Positions 4,198 to 32,894 of a DNA stretch of 35,492 nucleotides are shown here, one piece after another (positions within the stretch are counted from its first letter, which is position 1; each line of letters opens with the position of its first letter). Origin of the DNA: Candidatus Nanopelagicales bacterium (GTDB taxonomy: Bacteria > Actinomycetota > Actinomycetes > S36-B12 > JBBRLC01). The stretch spans positions 1 through 35,492 of the forward strand of contig JBBRLC010000001.1 of the NCBI GenBank assembly GCA_038231595.1, written 5' to 3'. Both the position numbers and the translations under genes were made by a program. A model generated the notes under the pieces. That model searched no databases. It was not told the DNA's origin and saw only the letters and a list, made by a program, of their open reading frames with translations.

Positions 4198-4252
4198 GAT
4201 TGTTTTCCCCTTCATATGAGAAACCCGCCACCGATGGGTGACGGGTACGCGG

Positions 4253-4321
4253 TCAACTTCGGACGATGAATACGAGCAGCGCGATCGCTGCGAGGACTAG
4301 CACGATTGTTTGGAGCGTCAT
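4253..4321 (-). CDS. 22-aa hydrophobic peptide (tentative)
   Basis: MTLQTIVLVLAAIALLVFIVRS. Its ATG overlaps the upstream stop (ATGA). It is too short for independent support. Confidence 0.3.
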   Translation of the reverse strand: MTLQTIVLVLAAIALLVFIVRS

Positions 4322-4878
4322 TGGACCGTCCTCGCGGGGAACGGTTCGGTGGTGATGGTGAAAGACGTCGAATACGACACGACAGTCACGGTGCGGATCG
4401 GGTTCGCCTTGTAGGTGGTGACGTTGCGAAGCCGGAACAGGTTTTTCTCCAAACCGGGTCCGGGGCTGATGTAGAAAGGGATCGGTACAGCGATGGTGAA
4501 ATCGTGCAGGCACACGTCGGCGGAGTTGTAGAACAAGATCGCCGGGATCTCGAAGGATGTAGTGATGGACCGCCCGTCAGGGCCGTAACGATCCAACCAA
4601 CGCTCCACCCTCACATCGACGCCGTGGTTGCAGTACCCGGCGTAATGAACTGCGACGGTGCCGCCGCGCGCAACCGTCGTCGGGCCGACGACGGTGCCGG
4701 TCGGGTTGGAATACGACACCAAGTTGTACGGGGCGAGCAGCCAATACGAGCACCCAACGACCAGCAAACCGACACCGATCATCAGTCCAGACATGAACCG
4801 CCACATCGTGCGGAACGTCTTAGACGGTCGCCCGTCGTGGGCGTATTCGACGCGCACGTCCATCGGGTCGTGGCTCAC
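4318..4878 (-). CDS. membrane protein, unknown function
   Basis: GTG start overlaps the upstream stop (GTGA). N-terminal TM helix FMSGLMIGVGLLVVGCSYWLL. Confidence 0.7.
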   Translation of the reverse strand: MSHDPMDVRVEYAHDGRPSKTFRTMWRFMSGLMIGVGLLVVGCSYWLLAPYNLVSYSNPTGTVVGPTTVARGGTVAVHYAGYCNHGVDVRVERWLDRYGPDGRSITTSFEIPAILFYNSADVCLHDFTIAVPIPFYISPGPGLEKNLFRLRNVTTYKANPIRTVTVVSYSTSFTITTEPFPARTVQ

Positions 4879-5816: not shown

Positions 5817-7745
5817 CTAGAGCGCGATCGGATACCCGGCTGTTCCGACGACGCCGTAGGTGGCGTCACCGACGATGAACACCGGGATGAACGGGGACAG
5901 TTGCAGTTCACAGATCGCATCGCCGTCAGCGGTGAGAGTCGGCCACGCAACGGATTCGACGATGAATTGCATGGTCGACGCGGGCGCATTCGACGGCAGC
6001 CCCGACACATCGACTCGATCGCCGGATTCCAGCGTGAGCGCGTACTGCCAAAGTTGCGGCGAGGTCGCCGGTCGCAGGGTGATTCGCCCACAGCGAACGC
6101 GTGAGGTTCCGTAGACGAACGTGTACCAGTTCGCGGCTTGGTAGAGGGCGTCATCACTGTCAACGTTGAACACCATCGGTGATCCGCCGAGGTCGCGTCG
6201 ACGATGTTTTGGGATGGAGACCGGGTTGGTGGCGCGGATGATGCCGCCGCCGTTGCGGGTGGCTTTGAGGTCGTTGATCATGTGCTGACGGTCGAGGCCG
6301 AACTGCAAACCCGACGTATCGACGGGCAGTGTGTCGGTGCCCAACGTGACAACCGGCGTTGAGACATAGCGAACCGTGTGGGATCGCCACTTCGATGTTC
6401 CGTCCGCGGCGAAGAAGAACAGCGACTGCGGATCAGCTGCGGCGGCCTCTTGAATCTCGGTCAGCGCAGACTTCCCTGAACACGATTGCGGACCGAGGAG
6501 CACAGAAGAATAGTCGTAGGTCTGCGATCCGGCAAATCCGACCCAACCCAGCGTCCGCGCAATCCTGGACGGAATATCGTCGCCCAGAAAACCTAACGCA
6601 GCCTGGTAGTGATATGTCGCCAGGGAGGGCGCAGAGTTCGCCCACAGTGCGACGTGACCGATCTGCCCCTTGAAAAAGTAGCGGGCATAGTTCCCGTTGT
6701 AGACCTCTGCGCCGATAGCGACAGGCCCGGTTCGTTGCGCTGCGATCGTGGGTGTTGACGACGAGTCGCTTAGAACCCCGTCGACATAGAGGTAAACATC
6801 CGTGGCAGTGCTACGCGCCGAGATGATGTGCGGGAGGCCATCGGCGACGAATGTCGACCCGCCGATGGAGCTGCGGCCAGCCCCGCCGCCGACCGGGTAG
6901 TAGAGAACGACATAGCCGAAATACACATAGATGGAAATGGCTTTCGTGCCGTAGGCCGATACGTCGTCGGTGTTGGCTTGCGAGAACACGGTTTGAAGGT
7001 GCGTCGCGTCAGTGGTCACGACTGTCGCGCGAGCAGTCCACGTTGTCGTTTCCAGATAGGCGCCAAGTCCGCCATTCCCGAGCTGAAGCCATTGACCCGA
7101 GTCCCACACCCCCGCCGAATCATGTGGGGACAGCGCGAAGTTCGTCGTCGGGTCGGTGCTGGGGAAAAACGGTGTCCCGCCGAACGCGGCCGCTGACACC
7201 AGCGTCGAGTTGAACCCAGTCAGCGGGGCCGAGATTCCGGTGATCAGGTCACCGGCCGCGTTTGACCCGGCATCCTCGCCGAGCGGGAAGTAGTAGTTCG
7301 GGGCTTCCAACGACGACAACATGTTTTCGATGTACGTGGACTGCAGCGTCGTCGCCGACAACGCGTCGGAATAGTCGACGGTCTGAAAGTTGTTCGACGC
7401 ATACCCGAAGCCGTCGCCGTCGATCGTGGTCGGGCACTCCGAGATGGTGTGGTCAAGAATCGTGTAGGTGCTGCCCGGGGTGAGGGCCGCGCGGACGCGG
7501 ATTCGCTTGTCGACATCGACCTTTCCGGTTCCGGCGATCGTCGCGCCAGACGTGTACGTGCCATCCGTGTTGTCGACTCGGATGGTTGAGGTCGTCGGGG
7601 TGACGGTGTCGAGTTCGTAGCTGCGACCACGAGGCCGCACAGCGATCGATTCCACCGGTGGCACCGACAGCCACGACGGGGCTACGTCGGGGTCAGTCGC
7701 CCAGGACGCATCGACTGTGATGGCGACTGAGGGATCGACGGGCAC
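5817..7745 (-). CDS. minor tail protein (Dit-like N-terminus with LamG/concanavalin-like insertion)
   Basis: GTG start 2 nt after the tape-measure stop. N-terminal RPRGRSYELDTVTPTTSTIRVDNTDGTY pattern. Central VYLYVDGVL…FKGQIGHVALW segment. Confidence 0.8.
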   Translation of the reverse strand: MPVDPSVAITVDASWATDPDVAPSWLSVPPVESIAVRPRGRSYELDTVTPTTSTIRVDNTDGTYTSGATIAGTGKVDVDKRIRVRAALTPGSTYTILDHTISECPTTIDGDGFGYASNNFQTVDYSDALSATTLQSTYIENMLSSLEAPNYYFPLGEDAGSNAAGDLITGISAPLTGFNSTLVSAAAFGGTPFFPSTDPTTNFALSPHDSAGVWDSGQWLQLGNGGLGAYLETTTWTARATVVTTDATHLQTVFSQANTDDVSAYGTKAISIYVYFGYVVLYYPVGGGAGRSSIGGSTFVADGLPHIISARSTATDVYLYVDGVLSDSSSTPTIAAQRTGPVAIGAEVYNGNYARYFFKGQIGHVALWANSAPSLATYHYQAALGFLGDDIPSRIARTLGWVGFAGSQTYDYSSVLLGPQSCSGKSALTEIQEAAAADPQSLFFFAADGTSKWRSHTVRYVSTPVVTLGTDTLPVDTSGLQFGLDRQHMINDLKATRNGGGIIRATNPVSIPKHRRRDLGGSPMVFNVDSDDALYQAANWYTFVYGTSRVRCGRITLRPATSPQLWQYALTLESGDRVDVSGLPSNAPASTMQFIVESVAWPTLTADGDAICELQLSPFIPVFIVGDATYGVVGTAGYPIAL

Positions 7746-13974: not shown

Positions 13975-14177
13975 CTGTTCACCCCCGTCATCGTTGCGCC
14001 GCTAGAAGTTTTGGGAACCATCGATGCTGACGATTTGGCCGCATCCGTCATGGACGCTGACTGGGCCGATGCGTCGGTCATCACGCCCCGAGTCGTTGCA
14101 GGCCCCCCACCACCTGTGCCGTCGGGGTAGGTGGAGTTGTTGCGGTAGGCGACGGTTTTGCGGTAGGCGACGCTCAC
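13971..14177 (-). CDS. hypothetical protein (68 aa)
   Basis: GTG start overlaps the upstream stop (GTGA), and its stop overlaps the next start. Confidence 0.5.
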   Translation of the reverse strand: MSVAYRKTVAYRNNSTYPDGTGGGGPATTRGVMTDASAQSASMTDAAKSSASMVPKTSSGATMTGVNS

Positions 14178-14569
14178 GGCGCAACGATCGGTGTGTCAAC
14201 AACTACGGCGTCGTCAACAACAACCTGCGCGGCATCGGTTGTTGGCACATCCGATACGACCACCGATATTGCGGCGGCGAAATCTTTGAACTCCGGTGAT
14301 GTGGACGGCGAGGCGAGAAGTTTGTCCAAAGCTTGGGCGAACACGTCGGACGCTTTCGCTGCTCGAGCGGAGTCGACCGCGTCTTGCGTTTCACGGGCGA
14401 CGCCTGCCGCTTGCGCGGCAGCGGCAGCGGCGAGATCCGCCGCAATGGATCGCGTCGAGAGAATCTTCCCCGTTTCGATTTCGGTGACGACTTCAATCTC
14501 TTTCACGTTGTCGGCAACGATCTGGATGTGCCGCCCCTGATCGTCCGTGCTGGTGAGGGTGAGGATCAT
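14174..14569 (-). CDS. hypothetical structural-module protein (131 aa)
   Basis: ATG 14569 overlaps the fibre-gene stop (ATGA). The track's longer N-terminus lies inside the fibre gene. Confidence 0.6.
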   Translation of the reverse strand: MILTLTSTDDQGRHIQIVADNVKEIEVVTEIETGKILSTRSIAADLAAAAAAQAAGVARETQDAVDSARAAKASDVFAQALDKLLASPSTSPEFKDFAAAISVVVSDVPTTDAAQVVVDDAVVVDTPIVAP

Positions 14570-20875: not shown

Positions 20876-21021
20876 TACCGATCGCCGCGCTCATCAGCGA
20901 ACGCGAAGCCCAACACGGCCAGTGACACGCCAAGCGCCAGAACCGCCCAGCGCAAACCGAACGTCGCGGCGAACCCCACCAGGCACAACAGTGCGGCGAT
21001 CTGACAGATCAGCGTTCGCAT
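20875..21021 (-). CDS. 48-aa two-TM membrane protein between TerL and portal (not in ORF track)
   Basis: Encodes MRTLICQIAALLCLVGFAATFGLRWAVLALGVSLAVLGFAFADERGDR. Its ATG overlaps the TerL stop by 1 nt, and its TAG overlaps the portal GTG by 1 nt. Confidence 0.5.
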   Translation of the reverse strand: MRTLICQIAALLCLVGFAATFGLRWAVLALGVSLAVLGFAFADERGDR

Positions 21022-22607
21022 CAGCCGTCCTCATCGTCGTCGGAATGTTGATGCCCGCAATCAAGGCAAGGAGCACTATCGGCAGGAAATTCGAAGTGAC
21101 ATTCGCAGTCGGAGCAGTTGCCGAGTTGGCCAAAAAAGAATGCCGAAGGCTGCGGCGCCTTGTCGTCGGGTTGTCGCACAGCCCACGCCGCTAACGCGAC
21201 CGCGTACAGCGGCGACAAGTCAACACCTTCGTCAGCATCGAAGATCCACTCCCCTTTGCCAGACGAACGACGCGCCACCTGAACAGAAACACCCAAGTCG
21301 GCGTCACCACGGTGCGCCAACGTCCCCGCGTTCACCGCGTCGAACAGCGCCGCACATGCGCGACGCACCTCGGTCGATGTCATCGCATCGAAACCGGGCA
21401 GATCCTCAAAATCGGTACTCAGCGATCCCGCGGCCATCGAAGATGCCAACACGACACTCGATGCGCCATGGCGCTCTACTCGATCGGTCACCCAAGGAAC
21501 AACCCAGGCGACACCCTCATCGTGGGCGACCAGCTCGACGTGCAGAATCCCGTCACCACGCAGCGATGCAACCGCAACCGATGACCACGCCCGATCCGGC
21601 GTGACATGCACGCCGAACACGATGCGATCCCCAGGCGTTGAGTCCGGGTCGGTCAACTTCCACCACGCGGGCATGTGGAACAGCCCACCAATCGCGGAGG
21701 ATTCCCACCAACCCATGCGCTCGCGGGCGAACTCCGCCGGCGGAAGTGAACGACGCTCGGCCGCGATGTAAGTCTCGGTGATTCGCTTACCCATCGCAGG
21801 GTTCGCTTGCTGCCAAAACTTGCGATTGTCCAGTGAGCATCCGACCGCGTTGCGGTGATGGTCGCAATCCTTCGACGTGCATCCACCTTCGGGGGCGCAC
21901 CACTCGATGTAGACCAGCGACGGGTCTCCGCCTTCACGTCCGCGATCCCTGACGAGCTGCAATACCAGCGAGATCGCGAGACCGGCACTGGATGCGTACA
22001 GAACCATCGGATTCGGACGGGCCGACAGCGTGGGCAGCAACGCGCCCATCATCTCGGCGGTCAGGAACAAAGCCTCATCAAGAATGACAAGGTCGCCGGA
22101 CAGTCCACGGCCCGATGCCTGGGATCGAGCAATGAAGATGATCCGCGAGCCGTTTACAAACTCGAAAGACTCTTCACCGTTGGAGAACGACACCCGTGAA
22201 ATACGTCGGGAAAGTTCCGGGGAAGATCGATACAACTTGAGCATCGCCAGGAACGCCTCATGCGCGGTCTTGTACCGGTGCGCCGACCAAACAACGAGCT
22301 GATCGGGCTTCGATATTGCGACCAGGAGAGCAACCGGCATGAGCACGCCGACGCTCTTGCCGTTCTGCCGGGACTCGATCAGGGCCGCCTCGAGAGCGGC
22401 CCACCGCTCTTCACCGTCAGGACCAGACACAACCGAGAGAATGGCGTCGAGCGCGAGGGCCTGTTCGGCGTCAAGGTCGAGGCCGAACACCTTGACCAGC
22501 GAGACCGCGAGGTCGCCCAGGGAATCCGAGCGCTCAGGAATCCACAAATGCGCCGGGTCGACCCGCTTACGCGCCAGAACGACGCTGCCTGCGCTCAAGG
22601 AGCTCAT
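21021..22607 (-). CDS. terL: terminase large subunit
   Basis: Walker A-like SRQNGKSVG and Walker B LVILDEA, followed by a C-terminal nuclease-like half. 528 aa. Confidence 0.92.
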   Translation of the reverse strand: MSSLSAGSVVLARKRVDPAHLWIPERSDSLGDLAVSLVKVFGLDLDAEQALALDAILSVVSGPDGEERWAALEAALIESRQNGKSVGVLMPVALLVAISKPDQLVVWSAHRYKTAHEAFLAMLKLYRSSPELSRRISRVSFSNGEESFEFVNGSRIIFIARSQASGRGLSGDLVILDEALFLTAEMMGALLPTLSARPNPMVLYASSAGLAISLVLQLVRDRGREGGDPSLVYIEWCAPEGGCTSKDCDHHRNAVGCSLDNRKFWQQANPAMGKRITETYIAAERRSLPPAEFARERMGWWESSAIGGLFHMPAWWKLTDPDSTPGDRIVFGVHVTPDRAWSSVAVASLRGDGILHVELVAHDEGVAWVVPWVTDRVERHGASSVVLASSMAAGSLSTDFEDLPGFDAMTSTEVRRACAALFDAVNAGTLAHRGDADLGVSVQVARRSSGKGEWIFDADEGVDLSPLYAVALAAWAVRQPDDKAPQPSAFFFGQLGNCSDCECHFEFPADSAPCLDCGHQHSDDDEDG

Positions 22608-22959
22608 CGACGTCGTCCTTTGCGCGCGGCTTGGACTTCTCGATCTCTGTCAGCGTCGCCCGATACTCGCGCGCCAAACCGGCCAAGGCGGTTGGCGGCG
22701 TTCGTGGCGAACGCAGCTTGTGCTGCAGCTCGCGGGCGACGTCGGCCAGCGACATCAAGACCTCGCGGTCGCCTGAAATCTCATCCGAGATCGGGGTGAC
22801 TTCAGCGATGACGGGAGCCAGTTCCGGTAGACCCATCTTGCGCGCCCTCGCCGCTAACACTCGACACGAAACCTGGCAGAACCGCGCCCGCGACCCATGC
22901 GTTGGCGGAGTGAAAACCTTGCCGCATCGGGCGCAGAGTCGGGTGCCGCGAACCACCAT
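22567..22959 (-). CDS. terS: terminase small subunit (zinc-ribbon type)
   Basis: 130 aa overlapping the TerL start. CARCGKVF…FCQVSC Cys cluster. RBS AGAGGA. Confidence 0.7.
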   Translation of the reverse strand: MVVRGTRLCARCGKVFTPPTHGSRARFCQVSCRVLAARARKMGLPELAPVIAEVTPISDEISGDREVLMSLADVARELQHKLRSPRTPPTALAGLAREYRATLTEIEKSKPRAKDDVDELLERRQRRSGA

Positions 22960-23422: not shown

Positions 23423-23681
23423 CCGTTACCGGAACCTTGATTGATTTGGTCACGGCATCGAGGCCGATCTCGACGAGCTTCGCGTCTGTGAATGTGGCGA
23501 GGTCTGTGCTTTCGCCTTCGGATGTGGTGAGCACACAGGTCCAGCCGTCGTCGGTCTCGCTCCGTTGCCATTCGAATGTGAATGTCATGGCAGTGGTCGG
23601 TGTCTCAAGGACATTGAAGCTCCCCACGGCTAAAGCCGGGGGATTCCCTGTAACCCTCGCGGGTTGAGGTTCCTGTTTCAT
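23400..23681 (-). CDS. hypothetical protein (93 aa)
   Basis: ATG preceded by GAGAGGG. Lies between tnpB and HNH. Confidence 0.6.
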   Translation of the reverse strand: MKQEPQPARVTGNPPALAVGSFNVLETPTTAMTFTFEWQRSETDDGWTCVLTTSEGESTDLATFTDAKLVEIGLDAVTKSIKVPVTDAKSVGV

Positions 23682-23683
23682 AG

Positions 23684-23860
23684 ACTGTCGCCCTCTCGCA
23701 CTAGGTGCGGGAAGGTCTTACACCATCTCCGCAGGCTGAAACCGTCCTCCCGACGGCCAAAATGTTGCGTGCCGCGTTCACGTCCCGGTCGTGAACTGTC
23801 CCGCATTGCGGGCACGTCCATTCCCGAACATTCAACGGCATCTTCCCTTGCAAGTGTCCG
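23684..23860 (-). ncRNA. putative omega-RNA (reRNA) scaffold overlapping the tnpB 3' end
   Basis: Placement follows known TnpB loci. Stem-loops occur at 23776-23796 (7 bp), 23800-23812 (5 bp) and 23742-23756 (5 bp). Boundaries are not determined. Confidence 0.3.
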
Positions 23861-24837
23861 CAGTCCGAACACGTCTTGCTTGACGGATACCAGCGGTCGA
23901 TTGCTATGACTTCCCGCCCGTACCATTCGGCTTTGTATTCCAACTGGCGGCGGAACTCGGCCCATGCCACGTCCGAAATGGCGCGTGAGAGGGAACGATT
24001 CGCCAACATGTTCCGCACCGTTAAGTCTTCGATCATCACCGTTTGGTTCTCGCGGATCAACCGAGTCGTGAGTTTGTGTAACTGGTCGTGCCGTCGGTCT
24101 TTGATTCGTGCGTGAACTCGGGCCACTTTGGTACGGGCCTTCGCCCGGTTCGCTGACCCCTTCTGTTTCCTCGCTAACGCGCGTTGCGCCTTCACAAGCC
24201 GCTGATGGTCTGTTCTGGCGTGCCGCATGTTCGCAACTTTCTCCCCCGTTGACAGGGTGAGAAGGTGCGTGAGGCCAACGTCCACTCCAACTTGAGTAGT
24301 TGTTGGGGGGAGCGGTTCGATCCGGGTTTCGACCAGAATGGATATGTGGTATCGCCCCGCCGAATCTTTTGACACTGTTACTGAACTTGGGGTTGCCCCG
24401 TCTGGGAGTGCGCGCGACCACACAATGTTGAGCGGTTCCGCCATCTTCGCCAGTTTGATCTGCCCGTCGCGGTGGGTGAACCCGAACGAGGTGTACGTCG
24501 CGGACTGCTTCGACTTGTGGCGGGACTTGAACTTGGGGTACTTCGCGCGGTTCCCCCAGAAGTTCACGTAGGCGGTTTGTAGTTGGCGTACCGCTTGCTG
24601 TAGCGGCACGGACGCGACCTCGCTCAACCATTGGGTGTCCGGGTCGTGTCGCCATTGCGCGATCCACCGAGCAGATTCGGCGTAAGTGACTTTCTTGTGG
24701 TCTTGGGTGTAAGCGCGGGAACGTTCCGCTAACGCCCGGTTGTACACGTAACGCACGGAACCGAACGTGCGTGCTAACTGTTGTTCCTGCTCCGGGGTTG
24801 GGTAGAAACGGTACTTGTACGCCCGCTTCACCAACAT
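23701..24837 (-). CDS. tnpB: TnpB (IS200/IS605-family OrfB, RuvC-type RNA-guided nuclease), apparently intact
   Basis: N-terminal AYKYRFYPT. RuvC D (VGVDVGL) and E (VMIEDL), zinc finger CSDCG…CPQCG, and final D (HDRDVNAARNI). Confidence 0.93.
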   Translation of the reverse strand: MLVKRAYKYRFYPTPEQEQQLARTFGSVRYVYNRALAERSRAYTQDHKKVTYAESARWIAQWRHDPDTQWLSEVASVPLQQAVRQLQTAYVNFWGNRAKYPKFKSRHKSKQSATYTSFGFTHRDGQIKLAKMAEPLNIVWSRALPDGATPSSVTVSKDSAGRYHISILVETRIEPLPPTTTQVGVDVGLTHLLTLSTGEKVANMRHARTDHQRLVKAQRALARKQKGSANRAKARTKVARVHARIKDRRHDQLHKLTTRLIRENQTVMIEDLTVRNMLANRSLSRAISDVAWAEFRRQLEYKAEWYGREVIAIDRWYPSSKTCSDCGHLQGKMPLNVREWTCPQCGTVHDRDVNAARNILAVGRTVSACGDGVRPSRT

Positions 24838-24917
24838 GGTTACATACTAGCACTCTAGTAGATCACTTCGCTAACCCCATAGCTAAAGCAAGGGGCTTGC
24901 GCTCAGCATCCAGCCTG

Positions 24918-25018
24918 CATTGATGAGGGACAGGCGCGTTGTTTGGGCGTGTGCCAAAGCCTCATCTAGTGATGGGTTGGCCTTGTCGTTCACTGTCGCC
25001 CTGTCCTCTTCATCAATG
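24918..25018. repeat. about 20-bp imperfect inverted repeat pair enclosing 60 bp, upstream of tnpB
   Basis: CATTGATGAGGGACAGGCG (24918-24936) pairs with CGCCCTGTCCTCTTCATCAATG (24997-25018), giving 19 pairs with 3 bulges. Confidence 0.7.
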
Positions 25019-25164: not shown

Positions 25165-25965
25165 TCATGCCTGTTGCCTGCGGTGTTTGGTGCGTGCAGT
25201 GTCGGCGTTGAGTAGGTCGAGTACGTCGCCTACGCGGTACATCTCACGCCCGTCGCGGTCGAGTCCGTGGGCGAGTAGGCGCCCGCGCATGACCCATCGG
25301 CTGATGGTTTGGCGGGTGACGGGTTGTCCCAGGTTTGTGACTGCTTTGGCGATGAGGGATGCGTGGGCTAGGTGGTCGTCGGCTGCGGCGAGTAGCCATG
25401 TGCGGCGTTCGTTGACGCCGTATTCGGTGGCGCAGGTGGTGCAGGTGACGGTTGGGGCGTCGGGTTTGCAGTACAGGTCGCCGCCGTCGTTGGGGCATGG
25501 GCCGGAGAAGAGTAGGTCGGCGGGGCGGTCGATGGCTTTGATGAGTGCGCGGTGGGCGTCATGCAACTCACTGAACGCCTCAGAGGCTTCAGGACGGTAT
25601 GAAAGCCATTGGGTTGCCCCAAGTAGCCAACCCGCCTGATGACCCGTTAGGGACGCTCCTGGGGGCTTTGTGGGGGGGTTGGCGGGGCGGTGTTCCACGA
25701 CATGGGTGACCCAGGCGCCGATTGTGTTGGTGACGATCCATGCGACCTCAGAGGCAGCCGGGTCGTACGGCAGCGGCTTCTCCGCGCTTCGACGCCCCTC
25801 GGAATCGCCGCCCATGCGTGTCTGGCGGGCAATCGCCAACTCGAGGTCGTGCCACAGGGCGGCGATGTCGCCTAGGGCCTGGTCCAGTTTGGTGCGGCAG
25901 GCGTTGCACATGATGGCCGTGTCGGGCAGGGCACGCCCGCATTGGGCGCAATCGTTGGCGCTCAT
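25165..25965 (-). CDS. zinc-ribbon protein with C-terminal MerR/excisionase-like HTH (possible regulator)
   Basis: ATG 25965 overlaps the upstream stop (ATGA). CAQCG…CNAC and CPNDGGDLYC…CTTC Cys clusters. C-terminal VTRQTISRWVMRGRL…YRVGDVLDLL. Confidence 0.75.
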   Translation of the reverse strand: MSANDCAQCGRALPDTAIMCNACRTKLDQALGDIAALWHDLELAIARQTRMGGDSEGRRSAEKPLPYDPAASEVAWIVTNTIGAWVTHVVEHRPANPPTKPPGASLTGHQAGWLLGATQWLSYRPEASEAFSELHDAHRALIKAIDRPADLLFSGPCPNDGGDLYCKPDAPTVTCTTCATEYGVNERRTWLLAAADDHLAHASLIAKAVTNLGQPVTRQTISRWVMRGRLLAHGLDRDGREMYRVGDVLDLLNADTARTKHRRQQA

Positions 25966-26321
25966 CGGTCCTCCGTGGTGGGTGGGCATCGGTGTTCGAG
26001 ATGGACAACGACGGCGGCGCTGGCGAGGTGCTGGGAGTCGCGGCGATACAGCAAAGCGCCGATGAGTTGATACGACGCCAGCCCGGCGATGACGGCAAGG
26101 AGTTCGTCACGGTAGGTAACCGGCTGTGCGTCGGCGATGGCTCCGAGTGCGGCAACGTCGTTGTCGTATCCGACGAGCACATCGGCTCGGCATTGCGGGC
26201 AGCGATGTTCCCTGACGGTGCGTCTCAAGGTTGTCTCAATCTGTGGGGTGGGCCGCAACGTTGAGCACCGGAGGCAGGCAGCGCATTGGTAGGGATCGCC
26301 GGGGTAGTCCTTGTAGAGCAT
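25962..26321 (-). CDS. Cys-rich hypothetical protein; start uncertain
   Basis: Track ORF 25962..26615. The first 98 codons are dominated by A/T-ending codons and are built from the GTTGTTG repeats, so the ATG at 26321 is used here. Confidence 0.5.
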   Translation of the reverse strand: MLYKDYPGDPYQCAACLRCSTLRPTPQIETTLRRTVREHRCPQCRADVLVGYDNDVAALGAIADAQPVTYRDELLAVIAGLASYQLIGALLYRRDSQHLASAAVVVHLEHRCPPTTEDR

Positions 26322-26425
26322 CGGGATGCTCAGCCCGCAGGTGGTGCATCGCAGCTCGCGGTCGATGTGGCTGCCCTGTGGATAACTCGCCGCTGACCGG
26401 ATCGGTTTGCCGCGATTTGTAGGCA

Positions 26426-26600
26426 GGTTGTTGGAAGTTGTTGAAGTTGTTGAACAACAACCCCCTGTACAACTATCCTCACCCGCGAATCCGGCATTTT
26501 TAGTATCTATGCAGGTCAGAGCGTTGTTACCATTTTGTGACCATGTCGAATTTTGTACGGGAGGTTGTTGGTCAACAACTTTCAACAACCTTTTGTTGAT
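26426..26600. promoter_or_regulatory. putative replication origin: GTTGTTG/CAACAAC iteron clusters flanking an AT-rich spacer
   Basis: GTTGTTG occurs at 26427, 26437, 26446 and 26564. CAACAAC occurs at 26455, 26573 and 26583. Variants are at 26523 and 26595. The spacer 26463-26560 is about 46% G+C by my count. Confidence 0.55.
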
Positions 26601-26611
26601 CTTCGAGGGCA

Positions 26612-28966
26612 TCATCTTGGCTTCGATTCGCCCAGTTTGAAACGCCCCTGATCGTTAGTTATCCACAGGAGATCGATAGCGAGTTCAGTGGCGTCACCTT
26701 GGAACTTCCGGCTGCTCTCAGCGGCCCTCGCAAAGCAGCTCTTGGTGCATCCGCCGCCTTTGTCTTCGTGGTATTTGGCGGTGTCGTGGGCTTCGATGAT
26801 GCCCCTGTATCGCAGTGCCACCTTCTTGAGGTGGTCACCTAGTTCGGTGTCGTTGGCGATCTGCCGGCGGGCATCGGAGCGGCCTTTGTTCTCGTTGAGG
26901 TCGCCGCGTTCGGTGGCCCGCATCGCCATGATTCCGTCACGTACCGTGTTCGATGCGTCGATGAGAACGCCGGATAGCTCCCACATGGCGTCGTCGATGT
27001 CGCCTCCACCGTGGAGTAGCGACAGGGCTACGGCTGCCTTCAGGCGGCACATAACGAGGTGGCCGTCTAGGGCGTCGATGGCAAACTTGTTCTGTTTGCG
27101 CTTGTTGTTGCGGACGTAGTCGACGACGTGTTGTGGCATTTGCACCTCAACCATGCGTTCGGTGGTGGTGCCGCCGTGTGCGATGGGTGGGCGCCAGTCG
27201 AGCGGGTCAGGTGTGGGCGGCTCAACGTCGGGCATGTGGGGGTCGATGGTGGGTAGCCATAGGAACCGTTGTGGCGTGCCCGCTGCTGTGGCATCGGCGC
27301 CTAGCAGGGCTTCTGCGCGCCCTGGTTGTACGCCTGCAATGAGCGCGAGTCGGTAGGCGTGTTCGGAGAGGTGTCGGCGACGGCTGGGGTCTGCGTTGTG
27401 GGTGCCGACTGCCGATCCTGACCAGATTGAGCGTAGGAACGGCCCGATCGTGGCGCCTTGCCTAGAGGACAGGGCGGCGAAGGTGTCGATTTCGTCGATG
27501 GTGACGATGGCGCGCCAGCGTGTTTGCACCCATTCGACGTGTCCGTCTTGCTTTTGTGGCTCGATGTAGAGGGCGATGAGTCCTTCGCCTGAGCCGATGC
27601 CGAATGATTCAACTTCGTCGTAGCCGAGTAGTTCGCGTGCGACTGAGGATGTGACGGATTTGCCGGAGCCTGATGGGCCGACGAGGGCGACGTAGGTGTT
27701 GAGGCTGCCTTGTGATCCGACTGTGGACGGCAGGACTAGGGACGGCCCGGTGGCGGCGATGATGCGGGCGAGTGTGGCGCCTAGTAGCGCCCAGGGGCTG
27801 ATGAGTCGTGCGCGGGCGAACGTGGCGACGTGGGTGAGTGTCGGCGTGGCTGCGAAGAAGGCAGTCTCGACGGCCAGGGGTGGCACCCAGGCGGTGCGGG
27901 AGATGAGCGCGGGTGGCGATTGTGCAGATTGTTCAGTATTTGGCTCGTTGACTGACACACGCGAAGGCGCTGCCTGTGCGCCATAGCCGGATGCGGCGAG
28001 CGCCTTTGTGGCCGCCCGCATGTCGCCGTGGTGCTCAAGGCGGGCGTAGACGTAGAACTTGGTGGACGGCTGATCTGCGGGTAGGTCTGTTGATGTGGTG
28101 AAGACGTACATGTGGCGGTCGCGGGTAGTTGCGCTGATGCCGATGTCTTTGCCGGGGCGTCGCCATGCCTCGTTGGGTAGTCCGCCGCGTGTGGCGGTGT
28201 AAACGTGTCGCCACCCGTGGCGGGTGAGCAGTTCGGCCCAGTCGCCGCGTTCGTTGTAGTCGTCCACGGGCGAGTCGGAGCCGTGCAGCATTGATTTGCC
28301 TGTGGGCGTGGGTGTGGATACGGGCGCGACAGATTGGTCGAGGAAGCGCAGCAAGGCGTGCAGGGCGTCGCGTTCGACGTTGGTGAAGTCTGGGGTGTGT
28401 TCGGGCTGAGTGGCGTTGATGAGGACGTAGTTGGCGCCGAGGTCGTGGCCCTTGCGTCCTGTGGTGGGGGCGACGATGACGAATCCGCCTTCGCCACGCG
28501 TCTCGGCGAGCACCTTTTTGGCGGTGTCGTCGTAGGCGAGTTTCGTGTTGCCTAGTGCTGGGCCGTCGCTGACGCGGATGAACATGTGTAGCCCAGCGGT
28601 GGGCGACATTTCGACGCAACCGCCGAGCGCGCGGTCAAGTAGGTCGCCTAGCCCTGAGGCTTCGGCAACGGCTTTGATGTCTGTGATGGCACCGGCCTTG
28701 ACGGCGATGCCTTCAAGCTCCAACATCTCAACGCGCCCGGATGTCGCCCCGGTGAGCACGCCGATGCCGTCGTATTTGCCTGACGCCATCCATTCGATGA
28801 CCTGTTCACGGCTGGGGCGTTGGGTTTGGTAGTCCTTCCATGCGCCGAAGGGGCGTTTGTCGCGGTCGGGGTGGCTCGGTACGACGGCGTAGCCTGCGTC
28901 GAACCATCGCAGGGCTGCCGTTTGTAGCGCGCTGCTCGTTGGTGTGGCAGCGGTGTCCACGCCCAC
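26612..28966 (-). CDS. bifunctional primase-polymerase / helicase (PrimPol N-terminus, D5-like ATPase)
   Basis: GTG start. AGYAVVPSHPDRDKRPFGAWKDYQ…GIGVLTG. Walker A GPSGSGKS and Walker B IVTIDEID. Confidence 0.9.
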   Translation of the reverse strand: MGVDTAATPTSSALQTAALRWFDAGYAVVPSHPDRDKRPFGAWKDYQTQRPSREQVIEWMASGKYDGIGVLTGATSGRVEMLELEGIAVKAGAITDIKAVAEASGLGDLLDRALGGCVEMSPTAGLHMFIRVSDGPALGNTKLAYDDTAKKVLAETRGEGGFVIVAPTTGRKGHDLGANYVLINATQPEHTPDFTNVERDALHALLRFLDQSVAPVSTPTPTGKSMLHGSDSPVDDYNERGDWAELLTRHGWRHVYTATRGGLPNEAWRRPGKDIGISATTRDRHMYVFTTSTDLPADQPSTKFYVYARLEHHGDMRAATKALAASGYGAQAAPSRVSVNEPNTEQSAQSPPALISRTAWVPPLAVETAFFAATPTLTHVATFARARLISPWALLGATLARIIAATGPSLVLPSTVGSQGSLNTYVALVGPSGSGKSVTSSVARELLGYDEVESFGIGSGEGLIALYIEPQKQDGHVEWVQTRWRAIVTIDEIDTFAALSSRQGATIGPFLRSIWSGSAVGTHNADPSRRRHLSEHAYRLALIAGVQPGRAEALLGADATAAGTPQRFLWLPTIDPHMPDVEPPTPDPLDWRPPIAHGGTTTERMVEVQMPQHVVDYVRNNKRKQNKFAIDALDGHLVMCRLKAAVALSLLHGGGDIDDAMWELSGVLIDASNTVRDGIMAMRATERGDLNENKGRSDARRQIANDTELGDHLKKVALRYRGIIEAHDTAKYHEDKGGGCTKSCFARAAESSRKFQGDATELAIDLLWITNDQGRFKLGESKPR

Positions 28967-29047
28967 GCCCTGACCCTTCGTGTTGTAGTTGTTGGCGGTG
29001 TCAACCCGCGCCGCCCTCTGACCCCAGCGAACGACGCGGGCGACGTT

Positions 29048-29581: not shown

Positions 29582-29606
29582 TTCTAGTTACCTCCGGTTG
29601 TTGTTG

Positions 29607-30377
29607 TTATGCCCCGATTGCGTGCGAGACGCTTTCGGAAAGTTGTGTGTTTGCCGTGTTCCCTGGGCAGCCGCGCTGGAACGTCTCGTCGCCAGGTGTG
29701 TAGAACGGGCACCATTGACAGTCGGTTGGCGTGGCGGGGATGTGCGCCAACATCGTCGGGTTGTGTAGCAGGTCAAGCACGCCAACGGCGACAGCGACGG
29801 CATCGAGGCGGGCCAGTAGCGCCTCAACCTGGTCAACGTCGTAGGCCGCTGACCAAACGTGCAGCCCGGTGGTGGGGTTGGTGATGAACCCGCTGCGCGG
29901 GTATGCCGCGATGGCAACGTCGTTGACTGTGTGACCCTGTAACGCCAACCCGTGCCCGTACAGCATCACTTGGTTGACGTATTGCTCTTTCGGCCCGCGT
30001 AGTCGCAACTCACGATGTGAGTCGGTGCCGAGGATCTTGTGGTCGATGACGGTGCCGCTCGGGATGTGGAACAGGTCAACGGTGCTCGACTCGATGTAGC
30101 CGGGAATCGTGATCTTGTGCTCGATCAGCCAGTCGGCTGCGCTGTCGCTTGCCCCGAGAGCGTCGGCCAACCATGCGTGTGTTGCGGTGCCCACGATGGC
30201 GCACCAGGGGTCGCCACGATCGGCGCGCTGTGGCAGGCCAACGTGTTTCGCTGCGATGAAACGCGCGCACGGGTGCCCCGCCTCCGATGCGCCGAGGTGC
30301 GCTTGTAGGCTGCGCGGCTTGTTGGCGTCGGCGTGCAACACGATCCCGCGTAGCGTTGCAACGAGGTTGAATCTCAT
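29607..30377 (-). CDS. Cas4/RecB-like PD-(D/E)xK exonuclease with Fe-S cysteines
   Basis: VDLFHIPSGTVIDHK (D…DxK) and QYVNQVMLY (QxxxY). Cys at HPCARF plus CQWCPFYTPG…C. Confidence 0.85.
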   Translation of the reverse strand: MRFNLVATLRGIVLHADANKPRSLQAHLGASEAGHPCARFIAAKHVGLPQRADRGDPWCAIVGTATHAWLADALGASDSAADWLIEHKITIPGYIESSTVDLFHIPSGTVIDHKILGTDSHRELRLRGPKEQYVNQVMLYGHGLALQGHTVNDVAIAAYPRSGFITNPTTGLHVWSAAYDVDQVEALLARLDAVAVAVGVLDLLHNPTMLAHIPATPTDCQWCPFYTPGDETFQRGCPGNTANTQLSESVSHAIGA

Positions 30378-30814
30378 GCGAATTTCCTTTTCCCCTGCTT
30401 CTGATCGTTGAGTCGGTCACACGCCTTGCAGTACCTGTTGCCGTTGCGGCGGATGCCGGTGTTGGCGTCGTTGAAGCTGTGGCCTCGCGGGCAGAACATT
30501 TGACGCGTCATCGACTTGCGCTTGCCCGTCTTGCGTCGCAGCGATTGACGTTCGGCAGGGGTTAGCCCGCCCCACACGCCGTAGTCCTCGTTCATGCCGA
30601 CTTCGAGGCATGCGAGTTGAACGGGGCAATCAGCGCAGATGGATTTGATGTAGGCGACGTTTTCGCGCACGCGTGCGCGTGCGGTGTCGCCGAACATGGT
30701 GTCGTCGTTGAGGCCGAGGCAGTTGGCTCGGCGATGCCAGTCGGGTGAGTTGAAGGCGGGGACGGTGTAGCCCTCGCCGATGACGGGGTTGTCTCCGTGG
30801 CGCCGTTGCGTCAC
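30374..30814 (-). CDS. whiB: WhiB-family regulator fused to a C-terminal zinc-ribbon
   Basis: CLGL…CADCPVQLAC…GVWGG, then CPRGH…GNRYCKAC. GTG 30814 gives a GTGA overlap with the upstream stop (the track start at 30838 is also GTG). Confidence 0.85.
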   Translation of the reverse strand: MTQRRHGDNPVIGEGYTVPAFNSPDWHRRANCLGLNDDTMFGDTARARVRENVAYIKSICADCPVQLACLEVGMNEDYGVWGGLTPAERQSLRRKTGKRKSMTRQMFCPRGHSFNDANTGIRRNGNRYCKACDRLNDQKQGKRKFA

Positions 30815-31146
30815 AACTCCACCGCCCTGAGTAGCCACAGGAATGTGGCGCCGTTCATGACGACGAAGCCGTCAAGCGGTGACGTTTTGCCCCGCGACTT
30901 CGCCCACACGACGCCGTACTCAGCACCATCGTTTTTGCGTTCGATCTCGGCTTCTTTCAACCATCCGGCGATGTCGTAGGTCTTGACGGCTTTCGCTTCA
31001 ATCACCCAGCCGATAACCCCGGCGATGTCGCCGCGGTCCAGTGCGCCGGACAGTGCGCGGCGTTCAGCACCGGGGAAGCCGTTGGCACGCAGGGTGGTCA
31101 CGATGGCGGACTCCCACGACGTGCCCTTGTTCTTGCTACGGTTCAT
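30811..31146 (-). CDS. Hjc-like PD-(D/E)xK nuclease (putative Holliday junction resolvase)
   Basis: KGTSWESAIVTTLRANGF…DRGDIAGV…VIEAK. Confidence 0.7.
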   Translation of the reverse strand: MNRSKNKGTSWESAIVTTLRANGFPGAERRALSGALDRGDIAGVIGWVIEAKAVKTYDIAGWLKEAEIERKNDGAEYGVVWAKSRGKTSPLDGFVVMNGATFLWLLRAVEL

Positions 31147-31262: not shown

Positions 31263-31447
31263 GCGCCTCGTTCCACCTTCGGCGGTGGCGTCGGCAACTT
31301 CAACAGCACCAACACGTTCAGCGCCTTCGCTATCTCCGATAAGACGAACAGGTTGCTGTGGGCGAGTGTGCGTTTCTGCAAGGCGTCGAGTTTGCGTATC
31401 GCAGTCTCAGCGCGGACGCGCTGCTCGTGCGCCGCCATCCCGTTCAT
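31259..31447 (-). CDS. hypothetical protein (62 aa)
   Basis: Track ORF. ATGA overlaps at both ends. Confidence 0.6.
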   Translation of the reverse strand: MNGMAAHEQRVRAETAIRKLDALQKRTLAHSNLFVLSEIAKALNVLVLLKLPTPPPKVERGA

Positions 31448-32160
31448 GCCGTTGCCGCCATGAGTAGTGACTGCTCGACGGGGGTGAGGCTATGGCTTTC
31501 GGTGCGCCCCGTGAGCCGGTCGTGTTCGTCTATCAGCCCAGTAAGGAATGCGATCCCGCCAGCGGCGCCCCTACTGGCGTCCTCGGCAGCGGCGGCGGCG
31601 TCGGCGGCGTCGGCAGCGGCGGCAGCGGAGGCGATAGCGAGTTCAGCGGCAGCGGTGGTGACGGAGGCGATAGCGAGTTCAGCGGCAGCGGAGGCGTAGG
31701 CAGCGGCGTAGGTGGCGCCGTCGGAGCGTTTCACGAATTCGGCTTTCGCCGCATCCCTCGCGGCGTAGGCGTTCTCCCTGCTCGGGTTGTCCGCCCACTT
31801 CTCAGCCGCAACAATTGCTGCCTCGCACGCGGTCTTGTCCTCGGGGCGAACCGCCCCGAACACCCGACGCGCCGACCAGACGGCGAGACGAACCGATAGG
31901 ACTTGGCGTTCCTCGGGGGAGCCTGTCTCGGCGGTGCCGAACAGGCGCCCAATCAGCGGCACCAGCAGGTGCCGCTCCCCATCTTCCAGGCGGTCGTTCA
32001 CGTTGCGCGCCACTGTTGCCAGCACCGGATGCGTACACCCAGGGTGGTCTGAAAACTTTTCACCGGCGAGGATGGACACGTATTCCATCAAACAAGCCCC
32101 ATCCTCGGGGCGTTCGTGTGCGCCCTTCGCTAGCACGGGCATGAACTCTGGCGTTGTCAT
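31444..32160 (-). CDS. uncharacterised protein, tandem paralog A (238 aa, Ala-rich variable core)
   Basis: The start MTTPEF… at 32160 has the same GGAAGGTGTAACCAA leader as paralog B. Conserved N-terminal (about 135 aa) and C-terminal (about 45 aa) blocks. Confidence 0.8.
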   Translation of the reverse strand: MTTPEFMPVLAKGAHERPEDGACLMEYVSILAGEKFSDHPGCTHPVLATVARNVNDRLEDGERHLLVPLIGRLFGTAETGSPEERQVLSVRLAVWSARRVFGAVRPEDKTACEAAIVAAEKWADNPSRENAYAARDAAKAEFVKRSDGATYAAAYASAAAELAIASVTTAAAELAIASAAAAADAADAAAAAEDASRGAAGGIAFLTGLIDEHDRLTGRTESHSLTPVEQSLLMAATA

Positions 32161-32177
32161 TTGGTTACACCTTCCGT

Positions 32178-32894
32178 TCATGCCGTTGCCCCCATAAGTA
32201 GTGACTGCTCGACGGGGGTGAGGCTATGGCTCCCGGTGCGTTTCGTGAGCCGGTCGTGTTCGTCTATCAGTCCGGTGAGGAATACGATCCCGCCAGCGGC
32301 GCCCCTACTGGCGGCAGCGGCGGCAGCGGAGGCGATAGCGAGTTCAGCGGCAGCGGAGGCGTCGAACGCGAAGTCCGCGCAGATTGCGGCGTAGACTTCG
32401 GCGGCAGCGGTGGGGGAGGAGGCGCAGATAGCGAAGCCCGCGGCAGAGACGCCGTCCTCGGCAGCGGCGGCAGCGGAGGAGACGGAGGCAGCGGCGGCAG
32501 CGGCGTTCTCCCTGCTCGGGTTGTCCGCCCACTTCTCAGCCGCCACAATGGCTGCCTCGCACACCGCCCTGTCCTTCCGGCGAAGATCCCCGAACACCCG
32601 TCGCACCGACCAGACGGCGAGACGAACCGACAAAACTTGCCGCTCTGCGGGGGTGCCCGCCTCGGCGGTGCCGAACAGGCGCCCAATCAGCGGCACCAGC
32701 AGGTGCCGATCCGCATCGGCCAGGCGGTCGTTCACGTTGCGCGCCACTGTTGCCAGCACCGGATGCGTACACCCAGGCCGGTCTGAAAACTTTTCACCGG
32801 CGAGGATGCTCACGTATTCCATGAGACACGCCCCATCCTCGGGGCGTGCGTGTGCGCCCTTCGCTAGCACGGGCATGAACTCTGGCGTTGTCAT
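32178..32894 (-). CDS. uncharacterised protein, tandem paralog B (238 aa)
   Basis: Near-identical N- and C-terminal blocks to paralog A, with a divergent Ala-rich centre. Confidence 0.8.
   Translation of the reverse strand: MTTPEFMPVLAKGAHARPEDGACLMEYVSILAGEKFSDRPGCTHPVLATVARNVNDRLADADRHLLVPLIGRLFGTAEAGTPAERQVLSVRLAVWSVRRVFGDLRRKDRAVCEAAIVAAEKWADNPSRENAAAAAASVSSAAAAAEDGVSAAGFAICASSPTAAAEVYAAICADFAFDASAAAELAIASAAAAAASRGAAGGIVFLTGLIDEHDRLTKRTGSHSLTPVEQSLLMGATA

Follow-up and report, generated by a model that had tools for sequence, protein, structure and literature searches.

Repeats directly downstream of a PrimPol-helicase gene

The 35,492-nt stretch of contig JBBRLC010000001.1 analysed here (hereafter the window) encodes on its minus strand a 784-aa protein (26612–28966) that combines a PrimPol primase, an AAA+ helicase and a C-terminal winged-helix-like domain, and that is presumed to act as a replication initiator. 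An element of short repeats (26425–26598) lies directly 3′ of its gene, followed by a gene for a small CPxC...EHRC zinc-type protein (25962–26321, minus strand; 119 aa from the ATG at 26321), which marks the far boundary of the element. Nearly all genes of the window are on the minus strand. The neighbouring genes encode a WhiB-like protein, a Cas4-type exonuclease, a large terminase, a major head protein and tail proteins, which indicates that the window represents a tailed phage of an actinobacterium.

The heptamer GTTGTTG/CAACAAC occurs in seven exact copies between 26427 and 26589 (163 bp), accompanied by variants. The initial annotation had described at least seven exact copies in two clusters containing head-to-head pairs; these are present, the pairs being GTTGTTGAACAACAAC (26446–26461) and GTTGTTGGTCAACAAC (26564–26579). 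On the two strands of the window, the exact 7-mer is found 23 times, compared with 5.2 ± 2.3 times in dinucleotide-preserving shuffles, none of which reached 23 in 100 trials. The roughly two copies previously given as the chance expectation were somewhat too few. The 16 exact copies outside the element correspond to about 0.08 per 175 bp, and by our own arithmetic the Poisson probability of seven in one 175-bp stretch is below 1e-9.

The actual repeat unit is a 10-mer, A(A/G)GTTGTTG(A/G), which is spaced at 9–10 bp and present in seven exact and two variant copies. Read in the orientation of the helicase gene, the helicase-proximal cluster (26553–26599) consists of TCAACAAA (degenerate), AGGTTGTTGA, AAGTTGTTGA, CCAACAACCT and CCCGTACAA, with two direct units and one inverted unit, the first of which lies 12 nt past the helicase stop codon. 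The distal cluster (26425–26472), consisting of TTGTACAGGG, GGTTGTTGTT, TCAACAACTT, a further TCAACAACTT and CCAACAACCT, has one direct unit and three inverted units and mirrors the proximal cluster. This inverted duplication is seen in the 29-nt arms 26444–26472 and 26553–26581 (90% complementarity) and the 20-nt arms 26425–26444 and 26572–26591 (95% complementarity). With the inner arms 80 nt apart and the inner palindrome centres separated by 118 bp, the whole element forms one large imperfect dyad. The 80-bp A/T-rich spacer between the clusters (26473–26552; G+C about 0.42–0.45) is the presumed unwinding region; positions 26400–26599 have a G+C content of 0.445, compared with about 0.62 for the window. 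The low G+C content previously noted for the spacer is thus real, while the genome value of 65% to which it had been compared was slightly high. When folded as single-stranded DNA, the 183-nt element yields a long stem-loop (−33.3 kcal/mol, z −5.0), which is a by-product of the mirror-image repeats.

The predicted initiator

The 784-aa protein matches the Pfam Prim-Pol family (PF09250, 2.1e-10) over the full profile and the DUF3987 family in its ATPase segment (8.4e-9), and among the PHROG families it matches DNA polymerases/primases (best 5e-53). A profile built from 31 helicases and compared with all Protein Data Bank (PDB) sequences retrieved only the primase of pRN1 ORF904 (1rni, E 0.0018) and one P-loop protein. 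For a full-length AlphaFold2 model (predicted local distance difference test, pLDDT, 88), Foldseek returned the ORF904 primase 1rni (E 1.8e-6, target-normalised template modelling (TM) score 0.63) and, as the nearest solved folds for the ATPase, MCM-type AAA+ helicases (E 6e-6 to 2e-4).

The C-terminal domain, which we regard as the likely reader of the repeats, is encoded by 26615–26794 on the minus strand (approximately residues 725–784). In a separate model of residues 620–784 (pLDDT 90), a 70-residue helix is followed by a strand, two helices and a beta-hairpin, and the full-length model agrees with this arrangement; the predicted topology at residues ~738–776 is winged-helix-like. Foldseek matches of this C-terminal piece are weak (all E ≥ 0.19) and include IdeR/DtxR, SelB WH2-4, Sso10a, an ArsR-type repressor and the MORF winged helix. 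The commonest matches are O-methyltransferases, which presumably align through their N-terminal winged-helix domain.

The helicase is without close relatives; its best database matches are 39–41% identical, and those from annotated phages reach 35–43% identity over half of the protein. Neither the helicase nor its neighbours matched NCBIfam, and a megablast search of 25900–29000 against 50,697 phage records gave no match.

Two side observations concern its 5′ end and a further gene. A lone consensus unit, CCAACAACT (gene strand, 28987–28995), is located 16–25 nt before the GTG start codon of the helicase and adjoins a TTGACA hexamer (28999–29004), and CAACAACAACAACC (29596–29609) directly precedes the ribosome-binding site of the gene for a 177-aa protein. 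These units may be autoregulatory sites.

The repeat region carries no coding signal

The repeats are overlapped by a 217-aa open reading frame (ORF; 25962–26615, minus strand), whose ATG (26615) shares an ATGA with the helicase stop codon (26612–26614), and in which in-frame start codons occur at codons 1, 2, 10, 11 and 99 only. The initial annotation had pointed out this overlap and the unusual codon composition of the ORF, and had left room for coding through the origin. Both observations are correct. Codons 11–64 have a G+C content of 0.43/0.54/0.35 at positions 1/2/3, compared with an average of 0.74 at position 3 in the solid genes of the window, in which no 98-codon stretch falls below a third-position value (GC3) of 0.61. 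The usual codon-position pattern appears only from about codon 129 onwards, and PHROG similarity is confined to residues 133–214.

Homologue coverage follows the same division. A word-indexed search of 5.8 billion proteins with the 217-aa ORF returned as its sole match the 119-aa product of the window contig itself (P0001), which starts at ATG 26321. An exhaustive HMMER search of 1.84 billion representative proteins retrieved 140 relatives of 78–221 aa, mostly 100–150 aa, all of which align to residues ≥ 82 only and nearly all to residues ≥ 128; residues 1–81 thus have no homologue in this set. The core common to the 140 family members is CPxC...D.D...P...E...G..SYDLI...EHRC. Neither tblastn against phages nor a single-protein scan of IMG/VR yielded a match to the ORF.

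The same region of related loci behaves as non-coding DNA as well. In 34 loci, the G+C content by codon phase over the 180 bp past the helicase stop is 0.573/0.573/0.565, compared with 0.70/0.49/0.80 over the final 180 nt of the helicase genes. A homologue of the CPxC small protein follows the repeats in locus L002, and its frame is closed over the proximal cluster. In 5 of the 34 loci, the downstream gene has a frame that runs through the element without a stop codon, which is about the chance level in high-G+C DNA (4–7 by our own estimate). ORFs that overlap the helicase stop end at scattered positions, and that of the window is the only one to reach a downstream gene. Since 29 of the 34 loci have some open frame in this high-G+C DNA, a simple open-frame test is uninformative and was replaced by the codon-phase G+C and ORF end-point analyses.

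From composition and homology we conclude that the repeats are apparently not codon repeats and that the region is non-coding. Coding through the repeats, as allowed for in the initial annotation, is now unlikely given the lack of homologues of residues 1–81, the lack of a codon-phase signal in 34 loci and the closed frame in L002. The CPxC gene most likely starts at ATG 26321, or possibly at TTG 26228.

The same layout follows the helicase gene in distant relatives

We compared the genomic contexts of two related helicase proteins (loci L002 and L003) and of 240 further loci from metagenomes, IMG/VR and GTDB genomes. The core group comprises 49 loci, including the window, which have a homologous helicase C-terminal part (~30–40% identity) and enough downstream sequence; contig L001 is 100% identical to the window and adds no sequence variation. 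At least five copies of one locus-specific 7-mer occur within 260 bp past the helicase stop in 32 of the 49 loci, compared with 7 of 913 random windows, and in 29 loci the copies are in both orientations and split into two sets, as is the case for 3 of the 913 random windows. In most of the 49 loci, the densest-repeat 260-bp window of the entire locus begins at the helicase stop. The density of the locus-specific 7-mer is 23.5 per kb inside the element versus 0.20 per kb outside.

Position and geometry are kept despite the divergence of the repeats. The two-cluster mirror-image layout around a spacer of lower G+C content starts ~0–40 bp from the helicase stop in about 30 distant relatives, and the repeat itself varies by locus (CCCTGTA, GGTGTAC, GTGGCCA, AGGGGTG, GGGTGGA, GTGGACA, GCAAACA, TCCGACA, GTAGGAC, ACGATTC, GGTTGGA and others); two repeat types found among the relatives are GGGGTGGACA and GGGGTGTACA. 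In L002, two direct GTGTTTGCA units and one inverted unit directly past the stop are followed ~119 bp further on by one plus three units. L003 carries two plus one CACCCCTGTACA units directly past the stop and one plus two about 110 bp further on, with an A/T-richer centre. The helicases of these two loci are 39–40% identical to that of the window. A matching palindrome pair 85–175 bp apart follows the stop in 25 of the 49 core-group loci. By a strict definition (60–200 bp apart), a pair was detected in 27 of 210 loci, nearly all from the core group, and in 0 of 542 control windows. Where loci have only the PrimPol domain in common, 87 of 161 have at least five copies after the gene, mostly in other arrangements.

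The centre-to-centre distances of the palindromes in the 27 loci fall into classes near 109, 120 and 133–143 bp. A Rayleigh test for helical phasing peaked at ~11.5 bp rather than 10.5 bp (R 0.59, n 27, uncorrected p ~1e-4) among loci that are related to each other, so that a reflection of helical phasing in these distances is only suggestive.

Two cultured phages are among the carriers. In Mycobacterium phage DS6A (L245, NC_023744, 55559–55826), the 268-bp gap after gp85 contains GTAGGAC repeats in both orientations. In Gordonia phage Tarzan (L244, OQ709200, 36533–36805), two clusters of CGTGGACA repeats lie exactly under the annotated hypothetical gene 55, which overlaps the primase gene 54 by 4 bp and is probably not a gene. 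Further carriers are contigs of Mycobacterium, Nocardia, Streptomyces, Parafrankia, Nocardioides, Gordonia and Williamsia genomes. In one of them (L200, Nocardia panacis NZ_QZFU01000005, ~4210–4400 of the locus), no stop codon interrupts the helicase frame across 11 GGGACAC repeats, and the frame runs on into a second winged-helix-like segment; either the origin of this locus lies inside a coding linker, or two genes are joined for lack of an intervening stop codon. In four other loci (L204, L233, L213 and L229), the densest-repeat window lies upstream of the computed helicase stop.

Features of the spacer and of the innermost arms recur as well. Of 23 relatives, about 10 have the spacer core motifs TGCAGGTCAGAG (26510–26521) and CCTCACCCGCGAATCC (26477–26492), with a constant spacing to the distal palindrome. 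The core in the relatives reads cAGGTCA(g/c)A, 12–14 A/T-rich nt, (t)cATC(C)GCG, 5–7 nt and GAGG, and lies ~30–38 nt from the distal palindrome in the spacers of L003, L183, L063, L014, L164, L217 and others; its AGGTCA part is inverted in the window. The core could be a priming site, an unwinding element, a host-factor site or a promoter. The innermost dyad arms of the window (26463–26472 and 26553–26561) carry CCCTGTACAA and TTGTACGGG, which correspond to the repeat unit of the relatives L003, L038 and L198; these arms could have been left over from the commonest repeat type of the family or provide a second specificity in common with it.

The helicase as the constant partner of the element

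The constant neighbour of the element is the helicase alone. The downstream gene varies and is convergent in L003, and each of five window neighbours searched by tblastn is present in at most 2 of 33 loci. Two other candidate repeat binders were rejected: the downstream CPxC protein, which follows the element in 4 of 34 loci, and a 274-aa MerR-like protein, present in 2 of 33 loci.

The distance between repeat half-sites correlates with helicase identity, both for the core (Spearman −0.45) and for the C-terminal 60 residues (−0.46). With the core regressed out, the C-terminal domain still correlates with the half-sites (partial rho −0.22, permutation p 0.018), which is not the case for the preceding long helix (−0.15, p 0.10). 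This covariation lends modest support to the helicase, and to its putative winged helix, as the partner of the repeats.

Two perfect DnaA boxes flank the repeats

The sequence TTATCCACA, a high-affinity DnaA box, occurs exactly twice in the window, in inverted orientation on either side of the repeats. One copy (26659–26667) is part of the 13-mer AGTTATCCACAGG on the plus strand (26657–26669), inside the 3′ end of the helicase gene, and the other (26377–26385) is part of an inverted copy of this 13-mer on the minus strand (26375–26387), on the far side of the repeats. Exact DnaA boxes are found in the elements of 4 of 34 loci, at 6 in 15 kb compared with 4 in 221 kb elsewhere, which is an enrichment of approximately 22-fold. 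All six boxes in elements have the 13-mer in common. The 13-mer is also present in or next to the corresponding element of three relatives, L002 (~7403–7416), L006 and L169, with a pair orientation in L169 that is not that of the window.

Comparison with known replication origins

The origins of staphylococcal pathogenicity islands (SaPIs) consist of 6–12 penta- or hexanucleotide iterons immediately downstream of rep, in oppositely directed sets of at least two on either side of an AT-rich centre; the SaPI Rep is a self-loading hexameric helicase whose C-terminal winged helix reads the iterons, with one hexamer thought to load per side (PMC9371898). All of these DNA-level features, i.e. origin position, iteron number, arrangement in two sets and AT-rich centre, are found in the window. 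A fusion of primase and helicase, as in the window, is also known from the SaPI5 PriRep, and SaPI Reps are mutually unrelated in sequence (PMC9371898). The 31-helicase profile detected no homology of the window helicase to a SaPI Rep among all PDB sequences, and none was among the top 50 Foldseek matches. The systems differ in that the primase of the window is a PrimPol belonging to the archaeo-eukaryotic primases (AEP) and its units are 10 bp long rather than penta- or hexanucleotides. Moreover, the window belongs to a full actinobacterial phage with structural genes rather than to a satellite, the host being deduced from the WhiB gene and the relatives. It has flanking DnaA boxes, whereas none is mentioned for SaPIs in the available part of the published account (PMC9371898). 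The SaPI origins were defined experimentally, whereas that of the window is predicted.

The origin of the Sulfolobus plasmid pRN1 lies within 166 bp downstream of orf904, which encodes a PrimPol, a superfamily 3 (SF3) helicase plus a winged helix, and includes a stem-loop of ~100 nt; a similar stem-loop follows the replication gene of Bordetella phage BIP-1 (PMC4234260). The predicted domain order of the window protein, with an N-terminal PrimPol homologous to ORF904 followed by a hexameric-helicase ATPase and a putative C-terminal winged helix, is comparable, and the window element is likewise predicted to form a large single-stranded stem-loop (z −5.0) just downstream of the gene. In contrast to pRN1, this stem is built from repeated units, the ATPase is nearest to MCM folds rather than to SF3 helicases (DUF3987, 8.4e-9), and the element belongs to a bacterial tailed phage rather than to an archaeal plasmid. 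The pRN1 authors described their origin as lacking an iteron structure and contrasted it with P4 alpha, which unites primase, helicase and an origin-repeat-binding C-terminal winged helix in one polypeptide and has a primase of the Toprim type (PMC4234260).

The window also resembles P4 in having short repeats in both orientations and a primase-helicase polypeptide with a putative winged helix. Far from the P4 origin, crr forms a second cluster of the same units, to which a distant cluster of 3–4 units in the window (14135–14246; see below) may be comparable. The P4 system differs in its Toprim (DnaG) primase, as opposed to a PrimPol/AEP, and the second cluster of the window lies inside a coding region. 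Unlike in lambda-type origins, the repeats of the window appear not to be translated, judging by GC3, homologue coverage and codon phase.

Iteron plasmid origins of the RK2, pSC101, F and R6K type combine initiator-binding repeats with an A/T-rich unwinding region and host DnaA boxes, and rely on a dedicated Rep with two winged helices that binds 17–22-bp direct repeats and loads the host DnaB helicase. Repeats, an A/T-rich region and two exact DnaA boxes beside the iterons are likewise present in the window. However, its units span 10 bp and form mirror-image sets, the helicase itself is presumed to bind them, and none of the window ORFs scanned (Pfam, PHROG) was of the Rep_3 type. The window therefore follows a known design, in which a self-loading primase-helicase has its origin directly 3′ of its gene, and combines a pRN1-type protein architecture with SaPI-type iterons. 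As the design is already known from SaPIs, pRN1 and P4, the window is a solid, unsurprising example of it, and the conceptual surprise is limited. We found no account of this element for actinobacterial phages in a limited search of the literature.

A putative phage replication origin and its alternatives

Based on these comparisons, we propose that 26375–26669 is the putative replication origin of the phage, a non-coding iteron element of dyad symmetry that directly follows the 3′ end of the gene for its presumed initiator, the PrimPol-helicase, and we put the probability of this reading at roughly 78%. An iteron origin next to the PrimPol-helicase gene had already been suggested in the initial annotation, and the layout in about 30 relatives, the co-occurrence with the helicase only and the match to SaPI and pRN1 origins support it. 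For binding, melting and priming at this origin, we infer the following hypothetical course: (i) the C-terminal winged helix of the helicase would read the 10-bp units A(A/G)GTTGTTG(A/G) in both mirror-image sets; (ii) one helicase ring would assemble per cluster; (iii) the 80-bp A/T-rich spacer between the clusters would melt; (iv) the PrimPol domain would lay primers; and (v) the host replisome would take over elongation. The two flanking DnaA boxes could recruit host DnaA as a helper. We propose the takeover by the host replisome because the ORFs scanned (Pfam, PHROG) included no DNA polymerase gene. Nor did these ORFs match integrase or ParA/ParB families, and this set of absences fits a phage that initiates replication itself and then borrows the replisome of its host.

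Several points weigh against this proposal. The pattern is missing at this position in about one third of the loci with a homologous helicase part. The assignment of the winged helix combines model topology with weak Foldseek matches (best E 0.19), its covariation with the repeats is modest (p 0.018), and the raw correlation between helicase and repeats owes much to co-inheritance, since the loci are phylogenetically related. In the window, no stop codon closes the frame of the downstream gene over the 112 codons that separate it from the helicase stop, where the ATGA overlap occurs; we estimate a prior chance of a few per cent for this, and a second gene call on the identical contig L001 accepted a 216-aa product. 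With nearly all genes on one strand, GC skew is uninformative for locating an origin. The spacer could also hold a promoter for downstream genes, in which case a regulatory role may coexist with origin function.

In its strongest form, this last point would make the element a transcriptional control region instead of an origin. On this view, a phage regulator or an autoregulating helicase would use the repeats as operators, and binding at both clusters would loop out and control a spacer promoter that drives the downstream genes. Mirror-image operator sets ~110–120 bp apart do resemble loop-forming repressor systems such as gal and lac, the spacer core is conserved at a fixed distance from the distal cluster, several relatives have a downstream gene with a good ribosome-binding site right past the distal cluster, and a lone consensus unit lies 16–25 nt upstream of the helicase start. 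We nevertheless consider this explanation unlikely. A scan of 25800–27000 detected no sigma-70-type promoter and one terminator-like site, which lies inside the helicase gene, with no more sites than in shuffled sequences. The element keeps to the 3′ end of the helicase gene whatever is downstream, including the convergent gene in L003, and no candidate regulator gene co-occurs with it. The DnaA boxes and the resemblance to the origins of SaPIs and pRN1 favour replication, with which regulation could coexist without replacing it. Somewhat less probable still is that the full 217-aa ORF is translated and that the units encode a low-complexity N-terminus, with or without an embedded origin as in lambda gene O. 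There is indeed no stop codon in this frame between the helicase stop, which the ATGA overlaps, and the conserved domain, a gene caller accepted the 216-aa product on L001, phage Tarzan has gene 55 annotated over its repeats, the helicase frame of L200 runs through 11 iterons, and in 15 of 34 loci the frame overlapping the stop crosses the whole element without interruption, compared with ~7.6 for each other frame. Against this stand the lack of any match to residues 1–81 among 1.84 billion representatives, with all 140 relatives aligning to the C-terminal part only, and a composition of codons 11–64 (0.43/0.54/0.35) that is unlike any real gene of the window. Across the 34 loci, there is no codon-phase signal, the overlapping ORFs end at scattered positions, the frame of the homologous gene in L002 is closed over the proximal cluster, and an open downstream frame (5 of 34) is about as frequent as expected by chance.

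Another type of cis-acting site with protein-binding repeats, i.e. a packaging site (pac/cos), a partition centromere or integrase arm sites (attP), would account for the general appearance of the element, as all three are clusters of direct and inverted repeats that are often A/T-rich. We regard this as very improbable. The large terminase gene (21021–22607) and a small ORF just upstream of it (22567–22959) are 3.6–5.6 kb away, neither an integrase nor ParA/ParB was matched among the ORFs scanned, the window contains no tRNA gene, and the element of the relatives follows the helicase gene regardless of the surrounding module. No Rfam family reached its gathering score in the window, with only sub-threshold chance matches near the element.

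The window provides a concrete candidate origin for this phage, in a group whose origins are largely unmapped. The rule ‘directly 3′ of the PrimPol-helicase gene’ would extend to candidate origins for dozens of relatives, including the Mycobacterium tuberculosis phage DS6A, Gordonia phages and integrated elements in Mycobacterium, Nocardia, Streptomyces and Parafrankia. It also marks out ‘hypothetical proteins’ that were probably annotated over origins in error, among them Tarzan gene 55 and residues 1–98 of the window ORF. Compact cassettes of origin and initiator suggest themselves as vectors for high-G+C Gram-positives, and the natural pairs of repeat and winged helix could be used for studying DNA recognition and opening by self-loading helicases.

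More tentatively, and with the odds in our view rather against it, the element could be a member of a large, so far undescribed family of origins of self-loading PrimPol/MCM-like helicases. Such a family would span actinobacterial phages, including DS6A and Gordonia phage Tarzan, as well as integrated elements, and would share a geometry of an outer direct unit and an inner palindrome per side, with the palindromes ~109, 120 or 133–143 bp apart. Its repeats would diversify fast together with the winged helix, giving rise to many mutually exclusive replication specificities, and the phage described here would in addition use host DnaA via the two flanking boxes and a distant P4-crr-like site at 14.2 kb. 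If true, this would offer a bacterial model for the head-to-head positioning of an MCM-like double ring without a loader.

A second repeat cluster and other features of the window

A possible secondary binding cluster is located at 14135–14246, 12.3 kb from the putative origin, with units at 14196 (minus), 14216 (minus) and 14236 (plus) that are exactly 20 bp apart and one more at 14135. It lies in the 3′ end of a gene for a 131-aa protein (14174–14569, minus strand), where 8 of 11 valine codons are GTT or GTA, compared with 27% in solid genes (p 0.002). These units may belong to the replication system as a second binding site similar to P4 crr, or may represent a small coding duplication (VVVD twice). 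In the relatives, no secondary repeat cluster was found within the range covered, i.e. flanks of ±3–5 kb.

Apart from the replication region, a complete gene of the TnpB/IS605 OrfB type (23701–24837, minus strand; phrog_506, 6e-138) lies between the replication and packaging modules. Its Pfam matches are HTH_OrfB_IS605, OrfB_IS605 and the Cas12f1-like TNB, and it lies in a patch of low G+C content (~23500–25000; 57–59% versus 62% for the window). Overlapping this gene in another frame is a 391-aa ORF (23678–24853), which is probably spurious. Two adjacent genes at 31444–32181 and 32178–32894 (minus strand) are paralogues that both match phrog_3416 and phrog_13065, and a C-terminal stretch of the WhiB-like protein (30374–30838, minus strand) matches HNH endonuclease families.

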